The notes under the pieces are model-generated. The model did not search any database. It was not told the origin of the DNA and was given only the letters and a program-made list of their open reading frames with translations. A DNA stretch of 10,582 nucleotides from Tolypothrix carrinoi HA7290-LM1 (GTDB taxonomy: Bacteria; Cyanobacteriota; Cyanobacteriia; Cyanobacteriales; Nostocaceae), in the NCBI GenBank assembly GCA_019358935.1, contig JAHHIK010000178.1, positions 1-10,582 on the forward strand. Direction: 5' to 3'. Below are positions 990 to 8,973 of the stretch, in pieces (position 1 is the stretch's first letter; the number at the start of each line of letters is the position of its first letter). Made by a program: the position numbers and the translations under genes.

Positions 990-1155
990 TGTAGCAACCT
1001 GCAATACTAATCGCTCAAACCTGCACTTCCCGGGTTTTTCAAACCAGGATTATTTGCAACTATAATTACACTTCAACCAGGATTAATTGCAACGTTCCCC
1101 TTGATTAAATGCAACCAACCTGCAATCATCCGTTTGAACCAGGATTATTTGCAAC
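990..1155 (+). repeat. Left terminal inverted repeat, 166 bp
   Basis: Reverse complement of 4002-4167 with one mismatch (IR position 7). Contains AACCAGGATTA(T/A)TTGCAAC-type units at 1042, 1075, 1097 (degenerate) and 1137. Confidence 0.95.
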
Positions 1156-1170
1156 GCTCCCGAAAGTCCC

Positions 1171-1400
1171 GTAAAACATGAGTTTGGCAGTTTACTTAAA
1201 AAACGGCTTCAACTTTACAAAAATATATTTGAATTCCAACGCCTGATTAATTGCAACTATAAGGTAAAAAAACGACCGTTTTTTTTACTGCTATTACCAG
1301 CATCAATCAGAACCAGAAATTAAATCAAGTTTAGTAACGAAACTCGGTAATTATATCAAAGGCAACATATTCTGTTAGGTAACGAGTTACTTTACTTGTT
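1171..1400. promoter_or_regulatory. Candidate res site / resolvase promoter region
   Basis: AT-rich stretch directly upstream of the resolvase with imperfect palindromes: GTAAAA...TTTTAC at 1171-1196, GTAAAAAAACG-AC-CGTTTTTTTTAC at 1264-1288, GTAACGAGTTAC at 1379-1390. Confidence 0.45.
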
Positions 1401-1411
1401 GGGGTTCAAGT

Positions 1412-1969
1412 ATGTTGATCGGCTATGCGCGAGTTTCAACTTCAGACCAAAATTTGGATCTGCAAATGGATGCTTTGCGGCAAGCTGGTTGTGATAGAAT
1501 TTATACAGACCATATCAGCAGTGCAAAAGCCGCAAGACCTGGACTTTTATTAGCGTTTGAGGTAGCGCGTACTGGTGATGTCTTGGTGGTATGGCGGCTC
1601 GACCGCTTGGGAAGGTCGCTTAAAGACCTGATTGAAACGATGGAAACCCTAGATAAGCGAGGAATTGGGCTTTCTAGTTTGCAAGAATCCATCACCACCA
1701 CGAATAATAGTGGCAGGTTGATTTTCCATTTATTTGGCGCATTAGCAGAATTTGAACGCAACCTAATCTCGGAACGCACAACTGCTGGACTTGTAGCAGC
1801 GCGATCGCGCGGTCACAGGGGAGGAAGACCAAAAGCCCTTGACCCAGCTAAACGCCAATTAGCAGTAAAGCTTTATACCGAAGGACAACATACCATTATT
1901 GAAATATGTAAGTTAATGGGAATTTCCAAACCAACGCTCTACAACTACATTGCAGAGATAAACACCTAA
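1412..1969 (+). CDS. Serine recombinase (resolvase/invertase family), intact
   Basis: MLIGYARVST catalytic Ser motif, LVVWRLDRLGRSL, AEFERNLISERT, GGRP and a C-terminal HTH; 185 aa. Confidence 0.95.
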   Translation: MLIGYARVSTSDQNLDLQMDALRQAGCDRIYTDHISSAKAARPGLLLAFEVARTGDVLVVWRLDRLGRSLKDLIETMETLDKRGIGLSSLQESITTTNNSGRLIFHLFGALAEFERNLISERTTAGLVAARSRGHRGGRPKALDPAKRQLAVKLYTEGQHTIIEICKLMGISKPTLYNYIAEINT

Positions 1970-1970
1970 C

Positions 1971-3635
1971 ATGGCACATAAGCAAATCCCGACAGAGGCG
2001 CTCATTAATTTACGCCACCGCCTCAATGGGTTGCCGAGTCGTTGCCAGGAGCGTCGAATTCTCATTGAAGAAACAGCAGCATTGTATGGAGTGTCAACGG
2101 ATACTTTGTATCGGGCTTTGCGTAACTCATCACGTCTAAAATCTATAAACCGCTCAGATAGCGGGACAAGAGTGAAAACTTTCACTCTCTGAAATGGAAC
2201 GTTACTGCGAGGTCATCGCGGCGATGAAAATCCGTACCAGTAACAAAAAAGGGCGACATGTCTCTACAGTGCGGGCGATTGAACTGTTGGAAGAATTTGG
2301 AATGGAGACACCCAATGGTTTTGTCCAACCGCCCAAAGGCGCGTTAACTAGAAGCACTGTCAATTATTACTTGAAAACTTGGGGGTATGACACTGAACGT
2401 ATGACCAGGCAACCGCCTGCGGTGCGTTTTCAAGCAGAGTACAGTAACTCTTGTTGGCATTTCGACCTTAGTCCATCCGATCTCAAACACGTAAAACAGC
2501 CATCATGGGTGGAACCGGGTTTGGGGAATCCGTTGCTGATGCTGTACAGCATTGTTGATGACCGTAGTGGCGTATGTTATCAAGAATACCACTGTGTCTA
2601 TGGGGAGGATGTCGAAGCTGCATAATTCTTCTTATTTAATGCGATGACGGTGAAAACAACCGATGGATTTCCCTTTCATGGGATTCCAGAGATGATTTAC
2701 ACTGACAACGGACCAATTGCTAAAAGCCACGTATTTCAAAACGTGATGGATTGCCTGAGAATCAATCTTGTCACCCACATGCCCGCTCTTAAAGATGGTC
2801 GCAGGGTCACAGCCCGCTCTAAGGGCAAAGTTGAAAGACCGTTCCGGACGGTCAAAGAAGCCCACGAGACTCTGTATCACTTTCACGAACCGGAAAGCGA
2901 CGTTGAAGCGTGCTTTGTGGTTACGCCAATATTTATTGCATTACAACGACAAACCACACCGCATAGAACCGCATTCGCGGATAGAAGATTGGTTGCGAAA
3001 TATACCAAAATCTGGCTTACGGTCGATGTGCAGTTGGGAGCGATTCTGTACCTATGCCCGCGAGCCACAACGGAGGAAAGTGGGAACGGATGCTAGGGTA
3101 TCAGTAGAAGGTGTAGCTTATGAGGTAGAACCTGACCTGGCAGGGGAAACTGTCGTGCTGTGGTGGGGTCTTTTTGACAACGAACTGTACGTAGAGAAAG
3201 ATGACCAACGCTACGGACCATTTTACCCAGTTGATGGTCCCATCCCCCTACACCGCTACCGTAAATTCAAGAAAACCAAAACTGAAGAACGGGCAGATAA
3301 AATTGCTGATTTAGCTAAAAAGTTGGGCTTGCCACGGACAGCCTTAGACAAAAACGCGGATCTACAATTTCTGGTGGATAAGTACAAGGAACTTACGCCA
3401 ACCGTCACACCTTTTAACGACCCCGACCCATACCAAGAATTTACTTATCCCACTATATTGTTTGCTAAGAGGGCGATTTCCGAACAACTGGCCAAACCGT
3501 TGGCTAAATTGTCTACCGAACAGTTGGCATTCATTGATGCACTGTTAGCTGAGACTTTGAATAAAAAAGTCATTATTGAACGAGTGCGGCAATATTTCCA
3601 CTCAAACTCATGTGGGGAACAAAATGCTCACGCTC
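1971..3635 (+). pseudogene. DDE integrase-type (rve / Mu-like, often labelled IS481-family) transposase, disrupted
   Basis: HTH N-terminus, WHFDLSPSD, IYTDNGP, KGKVERPFRT. Lesions: frameshift at about 2170, in-frame TAA at 2623-2625, frameshift at about 2910, and apparent loss of the native stop at about 3633. Confidence 0.9.
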
Positions 3636-3964
3636 TGTCATGGAACACTTTCGTTTGCTTCGGGAGTTCCCCAAGGCTGGGTACTACGAGACAGAACACC
3701 AAAAACAAATGTTTAAGGATATTAAAGCCGCAATCCATTTTGGGGAAAAACTTGTTACCACGGCGATTATTGAGTCCGTTTTATCGCGCGCAAATTGACG
3801 ACTTAGAACCCACTTTAACCCGCCACGGTTATGACGTGAGGGGCTTGGCGGAACAGTTTAATGCCAAACCAGCTGAAATTAAATTACTCTTTCGCGGGCA
3901 ACTTGACCCAGCGCGTTCGCGTGAATTACACGAACAAATGCTGGCCGCGGGACTGCCGCTTTGA
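3624..3964 (+). pseudogene. ExeA/TniB-like AAA ATPase, internally deleted and frameshifted
   Basis: ATG at 3624 after GGGGA. N-terminal VMEHFRLLREFPKAGYYETEHQKQMFKDIKAAIH joins directly to C-terminal FGEKLVTTAIIESVLSR / QIDDLEPTLTRHGY...MLAAGLPL*. No Walker A or B motif remains. Confidence 0.75.
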
Positions 3965-4001
3965 GCAAATTGAAAACGCAATAAAAATCCAAGTATTTAT
4001 A

Positions 4002-4167
4002 GTTGCAAATAATCCTGGTTCAAACGGATGATTGCAGGTTGGTTGCATTTAATCAAGGGGAACGTTGCAATTAATCCTGGTTGAAGTGTAATTATAGTTG
4101 CAAATAATCCTGGTTTGAAAAACCCGGGAAGTGCAGGTTTGAGCGATTAGTATTGCAGGTCGCTACA
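4002..4167 (-). repeat. Right terminal inverted repeat, 166 bp
   Basis: 165 of 166 bases identical to 990-1155 in inverted orientation. Confidence 0.95.
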
Positions 4168-4342
4168 GGTAACTCTCTAATTTATCCTGTTTTGTTTGAG
4201 AGTTCCTTTTAGGAGCAGCTATTGATGCGTCTAACAGTGTCGTTTTCTTTGCGACTCTGGGAAATTCTAGTCCCAACCAAGCAGCCTGGCGTTTTACGGT
4301 GCCGCGATCAACCTGTAGTCTTTGCGCTATCTTTTGGACACT
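4168..4342 (-). pseudogene. tnsD: Internal fragment of a Tn7 TnsD/TniQ-family target selector
   Basis: SVQKIAQRLQVDRGTVKRQAAWLGLEFPR resembles the HTH segment of TnsD C-terminal regions. Same strand as, and downstream of, the tnsB remnant. Confidence 0.6.
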
Positions 4343-4913
4343 GCGGGTTTCGTCTTGGCACATATACCTAAGCCGCTTGCCTGACCCAAATTCCGGAATG
4401 TAAAAATTTGAGCGAAGCGCGGGAGTTTTTTTAAAGTGAGATAAGCTCTCTGGATGCTGTTTCCGACTTTTGGGACGAGGAACTTTGAGTTTGGCTCCTT
4501 TGAGAATAGCGAGGTGCGTTGATAAACTGTTTTATAGGCAATGTTGAGTCGCAGTTCATTTTTGAGCCATTGTTGAATCTGGTTATAGCTATTGAAACCT
4601 TGTGGTTCCTCCAATTTTTGCTTCAAGCGTTCTAAGCTCTCTCCACTGACTATAGGTTCTTTTCCTGGCGCCTGCTTCACCTCTAGTAACCCGCTCCGTC
4701 CACCGTCTTTATATTTCCAAGAACCTTCGAGTTATGGTTGCCTCCGGAGCGCCCTAAACGTTCTGCGATCGCGCGACGACTCGTTACCTGACCTGTTTTT
4801 AGCCAGTAGAGCATTTGTAATCGCTCCTTGCTACTCGTCTGGCAAGTGTATTTAACGGCTTTTTCTAATTCTTCTTGACTTTCTTTTATTTCGACTTGTA
4901 ATTTTAAACCCAT
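4343..4913 (-). pseudogene. IS630 transposase N-terminal part (HTH domains), frameshifted
   Basis: MGLKLQVEIKESQEELEK...KERLQMLYWLK; APGKEP...PQGFNSYNQIQQWL; A7 slippery site at 4426-4432; RYMCQDETR. Confidence 0.85.
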
Positions 4914-4973
4914 CGCGCTTAAACCAAATGCACCCTTATTTCTAATTTAGCGCAGCTTCATACAGAAATGGTA
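4343..4973 (-). mobile_element. IS630-family element #1, truncated (5' half only)
   Basis: Terminal sequence TACCATTTCTGTATGAAGCTGCG (minus strand) starts at 4973, with TAA flank at 4974-4976. The transposase breaks off after the first catalytic motif YMCQDETR. Confidence 0.85.
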
Positions 4974-4991
4974 TAAGGTTCTAATACCATT

Positions 4992-5872
4992 TCACGAAAA
5001 CCCTGATACAATTAAAGCGTCTAAAATAAAATCCCATCCGGCAAGAGATTTGATTTGAGAAGACGTAAATTTATCTAGCCTTTTCCATACAGCTTCTCTT
5101 AATTCATTCAAATCTTGGAAACATTCCCAACTTAAATGTTTCTTAATTTCTTCCCAAAATCTTTCAATTGGATTAACATAAGAGTGTATGCGGTGGTTGA
5201 AACAATAAAATTATGTTCTCTGGTACTTCCAGATATTGAGAGAAGTGAAATGCACCATTATCAACTTGAATGATATGTAAATCCTCAGGATGCTCTTCTA
5301 CAAACTTTTCTAAAAATATCGATGGCGCAAATCGTGTCTAAATGTGAAAATTCAAGTATGAAGTGTTCTCCCGTAGTCGGTTCAACTACGCCGTACAGAT
5401 AGAAATTATCCCGTTTCCACGATTTTAATCCAACTGGCTTTACTCCTGTTAATGTAATTACCTTTCCTGGTATAGTTTGAAGACCAAACCGACTTTCATC
5501 CCCACACCAATAACGAACTTTCCGATGTTTTTATCCTGGTGATATCAAATATTTATCAATCAACTTTAACCATGAAGGAAGTTTTTTTTAAACTCTTCTT
5601 CCATGCCTTTGTTCTGCTTGACACTACGCGGACGAGGTGCTTTTAATTTCGCCTTGAGCTTGTAACGAACCGTGTCATGCACGACTTTATATGACGCTTC
5701 GATACCAACGGAAGCCTTCAACCAGGTACGGATTTCCTCATAACTTTTAAATCCTTCGGGGTCTTTTAGTTCAAGATTGAAGTTGCGATCCGCCGCAAGG
5801 CGGCAGCGCTTCCGCTCTTCGGACGAGGGGCGCGAACGCTATCGCACTAATTGTGGGATGGTTGTTGGTCGT
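4992..5872 (-). pseudogene. IS630 #2 transposase, 3' portion (DDE domain), frameshifted
   Basis: RPTTIP...DPEGFKSYEEIRTWL...KLKAPRPRS; A8 slippery site at 5582-5589; YWCGDESRFG, QVDNGAFH, NPIERFWEEIK; stop at 4992-4994 lies inside the IR. Confidence 0.85.
5788..5840. repeat. 53-bp GC-rich hairpin insertion splitting a HIP1 site (SDR5-like small dispersed repeat)
   Basis: GCG (5785-5787) and ATCGC (5841-5845) rejoin to GCGATCGC. The insert contains CCGCC-GCAA-GGCGG and a C-TTCG-G loop. Confidence 0.65.
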
Positions 5873-6020
5873 GCAACTTTTAAGCTAATCAAAGCGATTA
5901 AGCTTGACTAACTATGACATCCGTCAATTCCGATGAGCGAGGAAAGCACGATAGAATCATGCGTCACGGTAAAGGCAGTTGCGCGGCATCGCACGTAACA
6001 TGATGTTGCGTGCGCCATTT
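5873..6020 (-). ncRNA. Predicted omegaRNA/reRNA scaffold of the IS607 TnpB (5' boundary uncertain)
   Basis: Lies over the tnpB 3' end and the element right end. Hairpins AAGCTAATC-AAAGC-GATTAAGCTT (5882-5905) and TGAC-ATCC-GTCA (5915-5926). Inferred from TnpB biology. Confidence 0.5.
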
Positions 6021-7234
6021 ACATCACGAGAAATTTTAATTCCGCAATGTGGGCATTTAAAGATTTTAGAGCCACCAAGCTTTTGATGAATATGACCGCA
6101 GTTGCCACAAGTTTTGGAGGTGTAAGATTCGTTGCAAAGAACAACTATTACACCTTTTTTTAATGCCGCTTGTGTGAGGTGCTGCTCAAACCGATAATGA
6201 GAAAGAGTTAGCATTTGACGTACAGATTTATTGTTAATCCTACGTTTCTTGTTTTTCTTGGTTTTGACTACCATTTGACTAGTATCAAAAGTTGGTAAAA
6301 AGATTACTTTGTAGGAATTAACTAGCAAGTTGACTGCTTTGTTGTGTAGCTCTTTAATCAAATTTTGAATTCTTTCTCTTACACGATTAGCGGCAATACG
6401 CATCTTTCGACGCTGACGACTTTTGACTTTGGTGGATTGACTTATTAGCTTGTCAAGGTGCTGACACAATCTTTGTATGCGTCCGATATCTCCCTTACCA
6501 ATCTCTAAGACATTCTCACCATCAAACCCAGTCAAAAAAGTGCGATTACCTGGGTCAAGTGCAATTACTCTATCACTACCAGTTGGAGTTATTTCTTGAT
6601 GTTGTGGAAAACAACCAAACCATTTACCACGACGATATACAAGTTCTGTTCCATACTCACAGTGTTCGGGTACAGTTTGACCAAAAGTAGTAAACTTCAA
6701 ACCCTTTGTTGTACTGCAATACCATGTACCATTTTTCTAATTCCCAACTTGAAACTGTATAGTTTGAGCAGTAGCTTTTGCGGTTTTGAACTTAGCGAAA
6801 CCACCATCTTTTTTAGCACGATTAAATGCATCATATGCTTCAAAACAGGCTTCTTGTCGTTGATGACCAGGTATTGATGTTACCCAGTCAGGGGTATTTT
6901 CTAATCGTTGTAAGTATTTATCCAAGGTTTCTGCGTTTAGTTTTTCAACACCGTCATAGCAACGAAGTAAGCTAATAGTTTCGTTGTAATAGTAACGATA
7001 TTGAGCAAGCCACCTTTTCCAGACTGCATACAACTCCTTACTAGGATATAGCCTGATTTTGAGTACACTGTTCGGTTGAGGCTTTGTCGATTTCGAGTGT
7101 CTCGCCTTCTTTTTGTAAGTCTTCTTTAAACTTTGATTTGTACTTTCTAAGCCCGTATAACCTACTAGAGAATTGTTGTACGATGGACAGCATATCTTGA
7201 ATGAGTTCGGCTTCTGGACTAAGTTTGCGGTCAT
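5957..7234 (-). pseudogene. tnpB: TnpB RNA-guided endonuclease (pro-Fanzor/Fanzor2-like), split by one in-frame TAG; start uncertain
   Basis: LKIRLYP wedge start at about 7060; TAG at 6737-6739 followed in frame by KNGTWYCSTTKGLKF; IALDPGNRTF; IFLPTF; NESYTSKTCGNC...CPHC; RDVNGARNI. The frame is open upstream to 7675. Confidence 0.9.
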
Positions 7235-7682
7235 TGAGAACCACGAGTTCGCACTCAAATTTTTCGCACAACCACTTAACCAATTCATATCCGAATCTAA
7301 CGAGTCGGTCAGGATGGGCAACGACAAGGCGTTTGATATCACCGTCGATGATTCGCTCCAAAATAGAGATGAATTTTTTCCTCCTAAAATTGAGTCCGCT
7401 TCCAGTTTCTGAAATGACTTCACCCTCTGGGTATCGTTCACGTAAAAACGCAAGTTGTCTTTGCAAATCGTCTTGCTGGGAATGAGTCGAAACCCTCCCA
7501 TAGCAAACAGTTCTAATTGCCCTGGCGATACCTGCGGTTTTCTCGACCTCTTCGAGGATAAACCTTCTCTGCCCTCCTGGTGTTCTAATTGCTTTGAGTT
7601 TGCCTTCGTTTTCCCATCTTCTAAGTGAGGAAACGTGGACACCAAGGATTTTAGCGGCTTCCTTGGGGGTGACATGTTGCAT
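7041..7682 (-). CDS. tnpA: IS607 serine recombinase/transposase TnpA, intact
   Basis: N-terminal MerR-like HTH (TPKEAAKILGVHVSSLRRWENEG...RTPGGQRRF), YGRVST, GSGLNFRRK, HPDRLVRFG, FSSRLYGLR. Confidence 0.95.
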   Translation of the reverse strand: MQHVTPKEAAKILGVHVSSLRRWENEGKLKAIRTPGGQRRFILEEVEKTAGIARAIRTVCYGRVSTHSQQDDLQRQLAFLRERYPEGEVISETGSGLNFRRKKFISILERIIDGDIKRLVVAHPDRLVRFGYELVKWLCEKFECELVVLNDRKLSPEAELIQDMLSIVQQFSSRLYGLRKYKSKFKEDLQKEGETLEIDKASTEQCTQNQAIS

Positions 7683-7689
7683 CAATACC

Positions 7690-7750
7690 TACTTAACTCA
7701 ACTATAAATAGTCTAACAAGAGTTAAGTAAGTTTGAGCGATTTAAGCAAA
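7690..7750. promoter_or_regulatory. IS607 left-end TnpA-binding/promoter region
   Basis: Inverted pair TACTTAACTC (7690-7699) and GAGTTAAGTA (7720-7729). TT(A/G)AG motifs about 10 bp apart at 7723, 7733 and 7742 also occur at the right end (5880, 5898). Confidence 0.5.
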
Positions 7751-7768
7751 AATATTTTGATTATTCAC

Positions 7769-8021
7769 TCGTCCTGGACTCTTATTAAGTTCAAGCAGAC
7801 TGCTTAATCCACCTTCTCTATAGAGCTTTAGCCACCTCTGCACCGTTATCCTTCCTCTCCCCAACACTACTGCCAGGTGTTGCACCGTTTGGACTTGCCG
7901 CGTTTTTAATAAATACAGCGCTTGAACACGCTATGAACCCAAACCCAGTTTTTTGTTGTTTCAACAATTCCTGAAGTTCAGACGCTGGTTCTTTTATTTC
8001 TAGCTTGAGAACCCTACACAT
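7769..8021 (-). pseudogene. IS630 #2 transposase, 5' portion, frameshifted
   Basis: MCRVLKLEIKEPASELQELLKQQKTG, then in a shifted frame RVQALYLLKTRQVQTVQHLAVVLGRGRITVQRWLKLYREGGLSSLLELNKSPGR. Confidence 0.85.
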
Positions 8022-8083: not shown

Positions 8084-8750
8084 TAACTCATCTTGAATCA
8101 TGAATTGCTCTAGTGGGTATTTATCTAAACGCCTTTCATTGTTATGGTTAAGGATACAGAGAATCATTAAGGAGCGAAATTCATGTAAAGTTAAAACTCC
8201 ATCCAGCCTTTTATCCCTTTCACCTCGTGAGGGAAGGTTTTTTACAGCTCCTGGCAACCAGTGAATTCTTTAATTATTCAACTCGTTAAAACTCTGTTCA
8301 ACAATGCCTTTCATGTCGGCTCGATAAGGCGGTGTATTATCAACCTTGATATTGAGAGATTCCACCAAATTATTTGCATTGTATCCCTCAAATTCTCCTC
8401 TATCTGCCAGCACGGCGTGCGGGAGGTGATGGCTTGGCCATTCCGCTTCTGTAATTTCAATGCCAAATCCCCTGCAACAACCCTTCGCCTTATGGGGACA
8501 GCCAACATCTGTAAAATGTCGCTCTTGTATCGAGGATCTAGTAAACAAGGCTGTCCCCATAAGTCTTGGTCAGGTGTCGCCCTGGCAAAAAAAGACTTTG
8601 TCTGCTGTGGCGTTTTCTAAGGCTAACATTGCTCCCAACCATGAGGGAGGTTCGAGGGTGACAATAAACCCAACTATTAATCGGCTAAATACATCAATAA
8701 CTAAATAGAGTGTCGGTCTACCAATAATCCAACTTCGGTTAATGGCACTT
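8084..8750 (-). pseudogene. tnsB: Tn7 TnsB-family transposase, internal fragment
   Basis: IIGRPTLYLVIDVFSRLIVGF...EPPSWLGAMLALENA; EWPSHHLPHAVLADRGEF; NTPPYRADMKGIVEQSF; LDGVLTLHEF. All in one frame, with an in-frame TAA at 8270-8272 and a 111-bp insert. Confidence 0.9.
8471..8581. mobile_element. About 111-bp miniature inverted-repeat insertion in tnsB
   Basis: Perfect 15-bp IR CTTATGGGGACAGCC (8489-8503) / GGCTGTCCCCATAAG (8549-8563). Removing it restores FCQ-GFGIEITE. Confidence 0.75.
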
Positions 8751-8973
8751 GTGCCAGTACTTAAAAACTTTTGGAAGCTGGCTGCAACGAGACTTATATT
8801 ACCTTTGAAAATTCTCAAAAAAGGAGGGCGTAATTGGAGCGAGGGTCACTCTCTGCTGCAAGAGCTATTGCAGCAGGGGCAACAAAACGGATGGTAATAA
8901 GAGCGCGATCGTACTTTCTGTGGGGGGGGTGCGATCGCCTTGACAATTCAGACAGACGTATTTTATCACCACT

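Follow-up and report, generated by a model that had tools for sequence, protein, structure and literature searches.

The window, meaning the whole 10,582-nt stretch of DNA analysed here, carries on its minus strand an IS607 element of the pro-Fanzor type at 5871..7770, delimited by an end alignment of 14 close elements and by blastn comparison with two paralogues in the same genome. As expected of IS607, it has a serine-recombinase TnpA with an N-terminal HTH and a tnpB gene downstream on the same strand; it also has a RuvC-I DPG motif, a RuvC-II Glu six residues from the zinc finger and a cyanobacterial host, and the nearest elements (79-93% TnpA identity) sit in cyanobacterial records. The serine transposase, the DPG motif and the RuvC-II Glu shifted beside the zinc finger are shared with the cyanobacterial IS607 TnpBs described as pro-Fanzors (PMC10711439; 10.1101/2023.08.09.552727), and to this extent the element is of a known type (PMC10711439). 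The tnpA gene (7041..7682, minus strand) is intact and encodes a 213-aa IS607 serine transposase with a MerR-type HTH and a resolvase domain (NF033518, PF00239, PF00376), scoring 193.5 bits to NF033518 against a cut-off of 110. It starts at ATG 7682, with a TTG at 7685 as an alternative, and ends at 7041.

The +1 frame of tnpA is itself open. An ORF at 7675..6737 (minus strand, 312 aa) opens at an ATG that lies 7 nt after that of tnpA, and from ATG 7675 on the +1 frame contains no stop; the +2 frame contains 19. Direct reading agrees here with the first-pass annotation, which had placed this ATG 7 nt inside tnpA in the +1 frame, had described the tnpB frame as open across the 635-nt overlap (7675-7041) and had counted about 211 dual-coding codons. 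TnpB residues 1-211 indeed overlap tnpA, the dual-coding region being 7041..7675 (minus strand; ORF reading, resampling and selection counts), and the translation of 7363-7235 is identical to the peptide that had been quoted for 7235-7363. Shuffled tnpA sequences are rarely open to this extent: a stop-free overlap was found in 0 of 10,000 versions in which the TnpA protein was kept and codons followed genome usage (mean 12.3 stops, minimum 3), and in 3 of 10,000 versions in which the gene's own synonymous codons were shuffled (mean 5.0 stops). Four segments can be distinguished within the overlap, all on the minus strand: a basic leader predicted to be disordered, TnpB residues 1-102, lying over the TnpA HTH (7370..7675; AF2 and TnpA-silent change rates); a match to the beta-sliding-clamp consensus in this leader, QLELF at residues 53-57 (7505..7519; motif counts and complex model); a core, FW..LP.LTD..NSWFS, at residues 105-147 (7235..7363; profile and structure alignment to ApmFz2, the Fanzor2 of Acanthamoeba polyphaga mimivirus); and the first WED strand, KIRLYP, still within tnpA (7043..7060; ISDra2 and ISFba1 TnpB alignments). 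The overlap peptide had no match in Pfam or the ESM Atlas, a blank that proves neither novelty nor absence.

What the first-pass annotation had missed is an in-frame TAG at 6739-6737 of the tnpB frame (minus strand), recognized as premature by comparison with homologues. At this position a Tyr or Phe codon stands in each of the 15 close homologues compared, and one sequencing run, which may be the source of this DNA, gives no alternative letter. The product of this copy is therefore a 312-aa protein without RuvC, predicted to be inactive as a nuclease, while tnpA remains intact. The remaining part of tnpB (5957..6736, minus strand; translation, Pfam and alignment) would encode the RuvC-I motif ALDPG (6556-6548), the shifted RuvC-II Glu (6130-6128, within E-SYTSKT-C at 6130-6107), a C4 zinc finger (6109-6044) and the RuvC-III RD (6028-6023), and small indels in the tail bring its stop earlier than in the paralogues. 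These two paralogues, C43 and C73 (80-82% DNA identity), have uninterrupted frames of 593 and 590 aa and are predicted, judging by their sequences, to be intact candidates for RNA-guided DNA cleavage. The same genome holds a third element, C80 (42% TnpA identity), with the +1 frame open over 171 of 198 codons, and a fourth, C50, with an ordinary TnpB and 25 stops in the +1 frame.

The open frame extends well beyond this copy. We collected 117 loci, nearly all by TnpA similarity, so that the open frame did not steer the selection; 104 had an intact tnpA and 75 were left after 90% clustering. The 38 DPG-type elements among them have 26 stops in the +1 frame of tnpA, against 450 expected by resampling and 197 by within-gene shuffling. 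The 37 other IS607 tnpAs have 589 stops against 540 (resampling) and 582 (shuffling), that is, no deficit. This second group still included five loci with 0-3 stops whose TnpB is frameshifted, cut off or not found (L009, L013, L045, L050 and L068); they were removed from later controls, leaving 32 tnpAs. Also dropped were the 13 of 117 loci with a partial or broken tnpA and, from the DPG set, L010, the start of which had been miscalled, leaving 37 elements. In these 37 every +1 stop lies before codon 40 and none beyond codon 39: 14 fall in codons 0-8, 12 in codons 8-50 (66 expected) and 0 in codons 50-100 (95 expected), with the later bins holding 0 against 176 and 76. A second set of 30 elements, which share less than 90% identity with the first and were in part ranked by whole-protein match, has 28 stops against 366 expected. 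Metagenome and viral loci were ranked by such a match, which favours open frames, and 57 of 110 and 93 of 157 loci were unusable and left out ahead of the second-set and viral counts.

The open +1 frame persists down to a TnpA identity of 42% and is a trait of the DPG-type clade, the 32 other IS607 tnpAs being closed, so that it is narrower in distribution than the tnpA frame; since the elements are related by descent, the counts are not independent. The TnpA tree requires 3 changes between the open and closed states, and as it is weakly supported and lacks a firm root, a single gain cannot be claimed. Nine tnpAs lying near the open group have a closed +1 frame (L021, L041, L048, L057, L058, L061, L066, L071 and L077) and precede divergent TnpB-like ORFs with VDLDLDG, GLDKGY, GVDRGY and GIDFNP motifs. 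Closed tnpAs nested among open ones, mostly with other TnpB types, would fit a loss of the frame after exchange of the nuclease.

The second frame is under purifying selection in the relatives, although only weakly over the first 50 codons, where amino-acid constraint is slight, and it is therefore probably the front half of the nuclease. The ratio of changes altering both proteins to those altering TnpA alone (NN/NS) was 0.61 in 19 independent pairs compared with 0.99 in 10 control pairs; these are pairwise counts, uncorrected for multiple hits, with transitions given an assumed weight of 3. TnpA-silent divergence falls from 0.355 (codons 1-52) to 0.184 (codons 100-155) in DPG pairs and is flat in controls (0.52-0.60); the control pairs are more diverged, so it is the shape of the profile and not its level that is compared. 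In 8 close pairs TnpA-silent changes reached 0.31 over the HTH, against 0.34 at silent sites of the non-overlapping part of tnpB, and 0.17-0.21 in the remainder of the overlap. High rates over the HTH and low rates elsewhere mean that the leader is loosely constrained yet kept open, and that the core is constrained. Within the core, W145 is present in 37 of 37 elements, over V, L or M in TnpA, and W106 in 34 of 37 compared with 4 of 32 controls. The core profile also scores closed +1 frames of control tnpAs, with up to 41.5 bits, so that likeness between +1 peptides partly mirrors TnpA and is no evidence alone. It suggests that the core motif may have been half-written in the shadow of TnpA before it came into use.

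The first-pass annotation had likened the overlap peptide to the N-terminus of Fanzor2, and this resemblance is upheld by the giant-virus elements and by structural comparison. Among 80 viral loci, 62 had a DPG TnpB together with a tnpA match, with TnpB in the +1 frame in 60 of the 62. The giant-virus records L170, L183, L187 and L195 have their first TnpB ATG at most 3 codons from the tnpA start and carry PFW..LWLPT.T..(N)SWF/LF. Five further loci (L163, L164, L168, L169 and L194) have a TnpB frame that stays open over 105-204 codons beside an old tnpA frame with 9-42 stops; at its N-terminus, L163 is still similar to the overprinted L187 leader (27% over 103 aa, E 1e-14). In searches with full-length profiles ApmFz2 (PDB 9b0l) was the best PDB match (E 1.6e-52 and 5.9e-71), the alignments beginning at its residue 78 or 71 and placing N143-S144-W145 on N82-S83-W84. 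By sequence, the alignment to the ApmFz2 N-terminal domain exists as an extension of full-length matches only. The direct profile search that the first-pass annotation had in mind came out negative: overlap-only profiles (A1, 37 sequences; A3, 47 sequences) found neither ApmFz2, the sole solved Fanzor2, nor any related PDB chain at E values up to 10. A phmmer search with the 312-aa product gave 9b0l at E 5.8 only, and in one with the tnpA-less L168 the alignment to 9b0l did not begin until residue 134.

An AF2 model of the paralogue C43 (locus L001) had a mean pLDDT of 64, with residues 1-102 under 50 and modest confidence in the core (blocks at 54-68; 123-144 and 165-191 under 50). Its residues 102-570 align with residues 53-518 of 9b0l (Z 22.4, rmsd 5.3, 427 residues), a range that gives the first and last aligned residue only. 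With the TnpB structures of ISDra2 and ISFba1 the alignment begins at model residue 201-203, and with Cas12f at about 201. By fold alignment and full-length profiles, the core at 105-147 is likely to be the counterpart of the ApmFz2 N-terminal domain with its RuvC-R subdomain. In ApmFz2, Asn82 and Ser83 of this subdomain are described as contacting the guide-RNA pseudoknot, and the N-terminal domain (53-130) as absent from every other TnpB structure (PMC11832414); it is called unique there, without its origin being traced (PMC11832414). Fanzor2 is further described as having a disordered, basic 64-aa N-terminus with an NLS (PMC10530073). The TnpB studied here resembles this mimivirus enzyme in that a basic N-terminus, predicted to be disordered, precedes a probable folded N-terminal domain with the NSW residues aligned, within an IS607 setting, but differs from it in that ApmFz2 is viral and has an NLS described as probably gained in eukaryotes (PMC11832414, PMC10530073). 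Strict Fanzor2 identity is ruled out, because the protein is encoded in a bacterial genome with DnaN and not in a eukaryote or eukaryotic virus. A placement in the Fanzor2-containing TnpB clade is suggested by ApmFz2 as the best PDB match, the TnpA tree being poorly resolved, and this type of TnpB is predicted to work like Fanzor2 without being one.

The leader contains a recurrent short motif. Of the three-letter patterns in +1 codons 30-80, QLxL is the most frequent, found in 28 of 37 elements (runner-up 11) and, at 70% clustering, in 11 of 18 (runner-up 4). In codons 40-75 it occurs in 25 of 37 elements, against 1.1 in resampled sequences and 1 of 32 controls, and in the second set in 16 of 30 against a resampled mean of 1.3 (maximum 4 of 40). 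It stands at codons 9-15, 30-32, 45-56 or 64, over unlike TnpA residues, and is followed by F in 18 of 31 occurrences; downstream of the overlap only 1 of 37 TnpBs has it. The motif is absent from 9 of 37 and 14 of 30 elements of the two sets and is not enriched in viral elements (2 of 39 against 1.4 resampled). The beta-clamp consensus is Q-L-S-L-F/L, with Q1 and L4 most conserved (PMC3971601), and QLELF in this copy has both of these residues in a flexible region (pLDDT under 30). A putative motif of this Q-L-x-L-F type, known from IS proteins, has been described in a cyanobacterial IS200/IS605 OrfB; it is C-terminal in that protein, whereas here it lies in an N-terminal leader read within tnpA, and IS607 is not among the nine IS families given in that study as shown to bind the clamp (PMC3971601).

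A complex model of residues 40-75 with DnaN gave 0.68, the best of 3 controls giving 0.00; the tightest contacts were at QLEL, the runs agreed in at least 59% of contacts and the partner pLDDT was at least 48. The mark set for such models is reached by 51 of 78 solved and by 2 of 108 mismatched pairs. Solved structures include many clamp-peptide complexes, so the model may owe its pass to these and indicates likeness rather than binding. Three DnaN-family genes of this genome score above the TIGR00663 cut-off (G000:C71:9238-10395, C173:3063-4274 and C9:51192-52304), only the best of which was used in the model. Taken together, we regard binding of the leader QLELF to the host beta sliding clamp as moderately probable.

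The position of the first ATG bears on how TnpB is made. In the +1 frame an ATG occurs within the first 8 codons in 31 of the 37 DPG elements, against a resampled mean of 20.3, with 0 of 2000 resamples reaching 31; the controls have one in 7 of 32 cases. TnpA's own Y/H-V start gives a +1 ATG in more than half of the resamples. The early ATGs of the 31 elements stand in several codon contexts and are followed by no stop in 29 and by a stop in 2, and in 33 of 37 elements an ATG lies at most 4 codons after the last 5' stop or the tnpA start. Upstream of ATGs 7682 and 7675 there is a weak Shine-Dalgarno-like TAGGT (7687..7691, minus strand), with a best anti-SD duplex of -4.6 kcal/mol and spacings of 4 and 11 to the two ATGs, which may serve both starts in the close clade. 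Such a site is lacking in many relatives, and the Shine-Dalgarno analysis gave mixed results and carries no weight here.

On these data we consider it likely that TnpB is a protein of ~590 aa translated from its own ATG near the tnpA start, with an overprinted front half that includes a Fanzor2-type domain and the clamp motif. An overprinted domain could also be real with TnpB starting at about codon 80-95, where some phage elements have their first ATG, the leader and its QLxLF being untranslated or functionless, which we judge unlikely. Codons 2-52 are weakly constrained in amino acids, the leader is predicted to be disordered and TnpA segments like A-I-R-T readily give Q-L-E in the +1 frame, all of which would suit a late start, as would the viral elements L130, L131, L137, L148, L151 and L176, which have stops up to codon 45-76 and their first ATG at 79-88. 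However, codons 8-50 and 50-100 are short of stops (12 and 0 against 66 and 95), residues 1-88 of this copy are stop-free in just 21 of 5000 resamples, the motif exceeds resampling about 12-fold in the second set and stands at several positions, and the leader is retained in the tnpA-less L163.

The first-pass annotation had weighed a long overprinted N-terminus against a frameshifted TnpA-TnpB fusion; the former stands as the best reading, whereas the latter is disfavoured by the conserved early ATG and the frame that stays open after it in 29 of 31 elements. We hold a fusion by +1 ribosomal frameshifting early in tnpA, alone or beside separate starts, to be very unlikely. Programmed frameshifting is common in other IS families, the two genes lie on the same strand in a constant +1 relation, and slippery-type heptamers occur in 35 of 37 DPG elements. 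Yet these heptamers are equally common in controls (30 of 32), such that the scan did not separate the groups, and they are scattered along the gene, with 17 in the fullest ten-codon bin. The ATG found at most 4 codons after the last 5' stop in 33 of 37 elements also speaks against a fusion, and a shift after the HTH would leave codons 8-50 free to close; separate initiation fits the early ATGs better and is favoured. Least credible is an open frame that is an untranslated by-product of TnpA sequence, codon bias or shared descent: the +1 core profile does score closed control frames and related elements are not independent, but TnpA-preserving resampling expects 450 stops where 26 are observed and the controls have no deficit, openness reaches down to 42% TnpA identity, and the TnpB frame survives tnpA decay.

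If TnpB is made from its own early start, the transposase and the first 211 residues of the nuclease would be encoded by the same DNA from two starts 7 nt apart, translation of TnpB presumably beginning at 7675. Residues 1-102 would form a disordered basic leader, constrained mainly to stay stop-free and to carry QLxLF, through which TnpB would likely dock on the host beta sliding clamp. The Fanzor2-type N-terminal domain is probably made up of residues ~103-165, presumably with a RuvC-R-like role; in the solved mimivirus enzyme the N-terminal domain is described as completing the RuvC fold and touching the guide-RNA pseudoknot (PMC11832414). Of the two frames, that of TnpA is probably the older. 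The TnpB extension would have arisen by overprinting and travelled with the element into giant viruses, in which it outlives the loss of tnpA. More speculatively, clamp binding might bring the nuclease to replication forks, close to a sister copy available for repair after cutting of an emptied site, and the leader might be the source of the Fanzor2 localisation signal. A joint reading, which we put forward only tentatively, is that the bacterial forerunners of Fanzor2 turned the whole of tnpA into a second coding frame with two nearby starts, and that the de novo N-terminus of TnpB gained an RNA-contacting fold and, repeatedly and at different positions, a clamp motif linking the nuclease to the replication fork; the leader would, in eukaryotic viruses, have lost the clamp motif and given the raw material for an NLS, so that both 'eukaryotic' additions of Fanzor2 would have begun as the +1 frame of tnpA.

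Ordinary IS607 and IS200/IS605 TnpBs (ISDra2, 8h1j; ISFba1, 8iaz; C50) share the WED-REC-RuvC-zinc finger core with the present protein. They differ in starting at the WED strand with a short overlap at most, the +1 frame of their tnpA having 10-26 stops. New proteins in an alternative frame of an older gene are also known from overprinted bacterial genes, described as recent orphans (PMC4683798, PMC5810103); unlike these, the present same-strand overlap is selected across many cyanobacterial genera, phages and giant viruses and is joined to an existing enzyme. The main text of PMC10711439 makes no mention of an overlap or of the N-terminus, and we found neither tnpA/tnpB dual coding nor a clamp motif in the passages covered of PMC10711439 and the preprint 10.1101/2023.08.09.552727. 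A literature search of openly accessible main texts returned no report of tnpA/tnpB overprinting or of a clamp motif in the overlap. What is added here is the full-length overlap, with a start beside that of tnpA, and the clamp motif in the leader. If correct, this would provide a traceable origin of a folded domain from an alternative frame, within a protein family employed in genome editing, and would account for the source of the 'unique' N-terminal domain of Fanzor2; the clamp motif would be the first direct link between the N-terminus of a TnpB-family nuclease and host replication.

There may be a practical side to this. On plasmid alpha of Nostoc PCC 7120 (NC_003276.1, L387, 1141-2802) the TnpB frame is open over 553 codons and tnpA has one stop. 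The CDS listed in this record starts at 1627, 162 codons into the 553-codon ORF, and omits the overprinted core. Gene callers can thus shorten these TnpBs, and pro-Fanzors cloned from annotation may therefore miss a needed domain.

At the ends of the element, the left end is preceded by a conserved (A/G)GAC at 7774-7771 and the right end reads ...AAAAGTTGCAC. AC is present at both junctions (14 aligned elements) and is likely the crossover dinucleotide. In this copy and 13 related elements the left flank is invariably (A/G)GAC and the right end GCAC, which suggests an AC crossover and a TAM differing from the GG/GGG of described IS607s. The conserved right-end region (5871..6030, minus strand; end alignment) is likely the omega/reRNA scaffold; Rfam had zero matches across the window, and a fold of this RNA from 3 poorly registered sequences was not relied on. 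L008 and L035 have a 21-nt insertion within this region and a lengthened TnpB tail. Promoter and terminator scans gave no signal above shuffle level.

The element lies among other mobile remnants. It is flanked on both sides by sequences looking like IS630-type remnants, the fragments at 4163-5560 and 7818-8021 resembling decayed transposases of this type (weak HTH_32 match at 4327-4680). Broken pieces of a DDE transposase are found at 8270-8818 on the minus strand, with a weak IS481 match at 8270-8560; these pieces may resemble Tn7-like TnsB. A 3.2-kb element at 990-4167 has 166-nt inverted repeats at its ends (99% complementary) and 28-29-nt repeats inside, and contains a resolvase (1412-1969) and a fragmented DDE transposase (1971-3964) with frameshifts, stops and weak IS481/Mu-type matches. 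At 806-997 there is a C-terminal piece of a putative transposase of the NF041680 family (E 1.2e-26).
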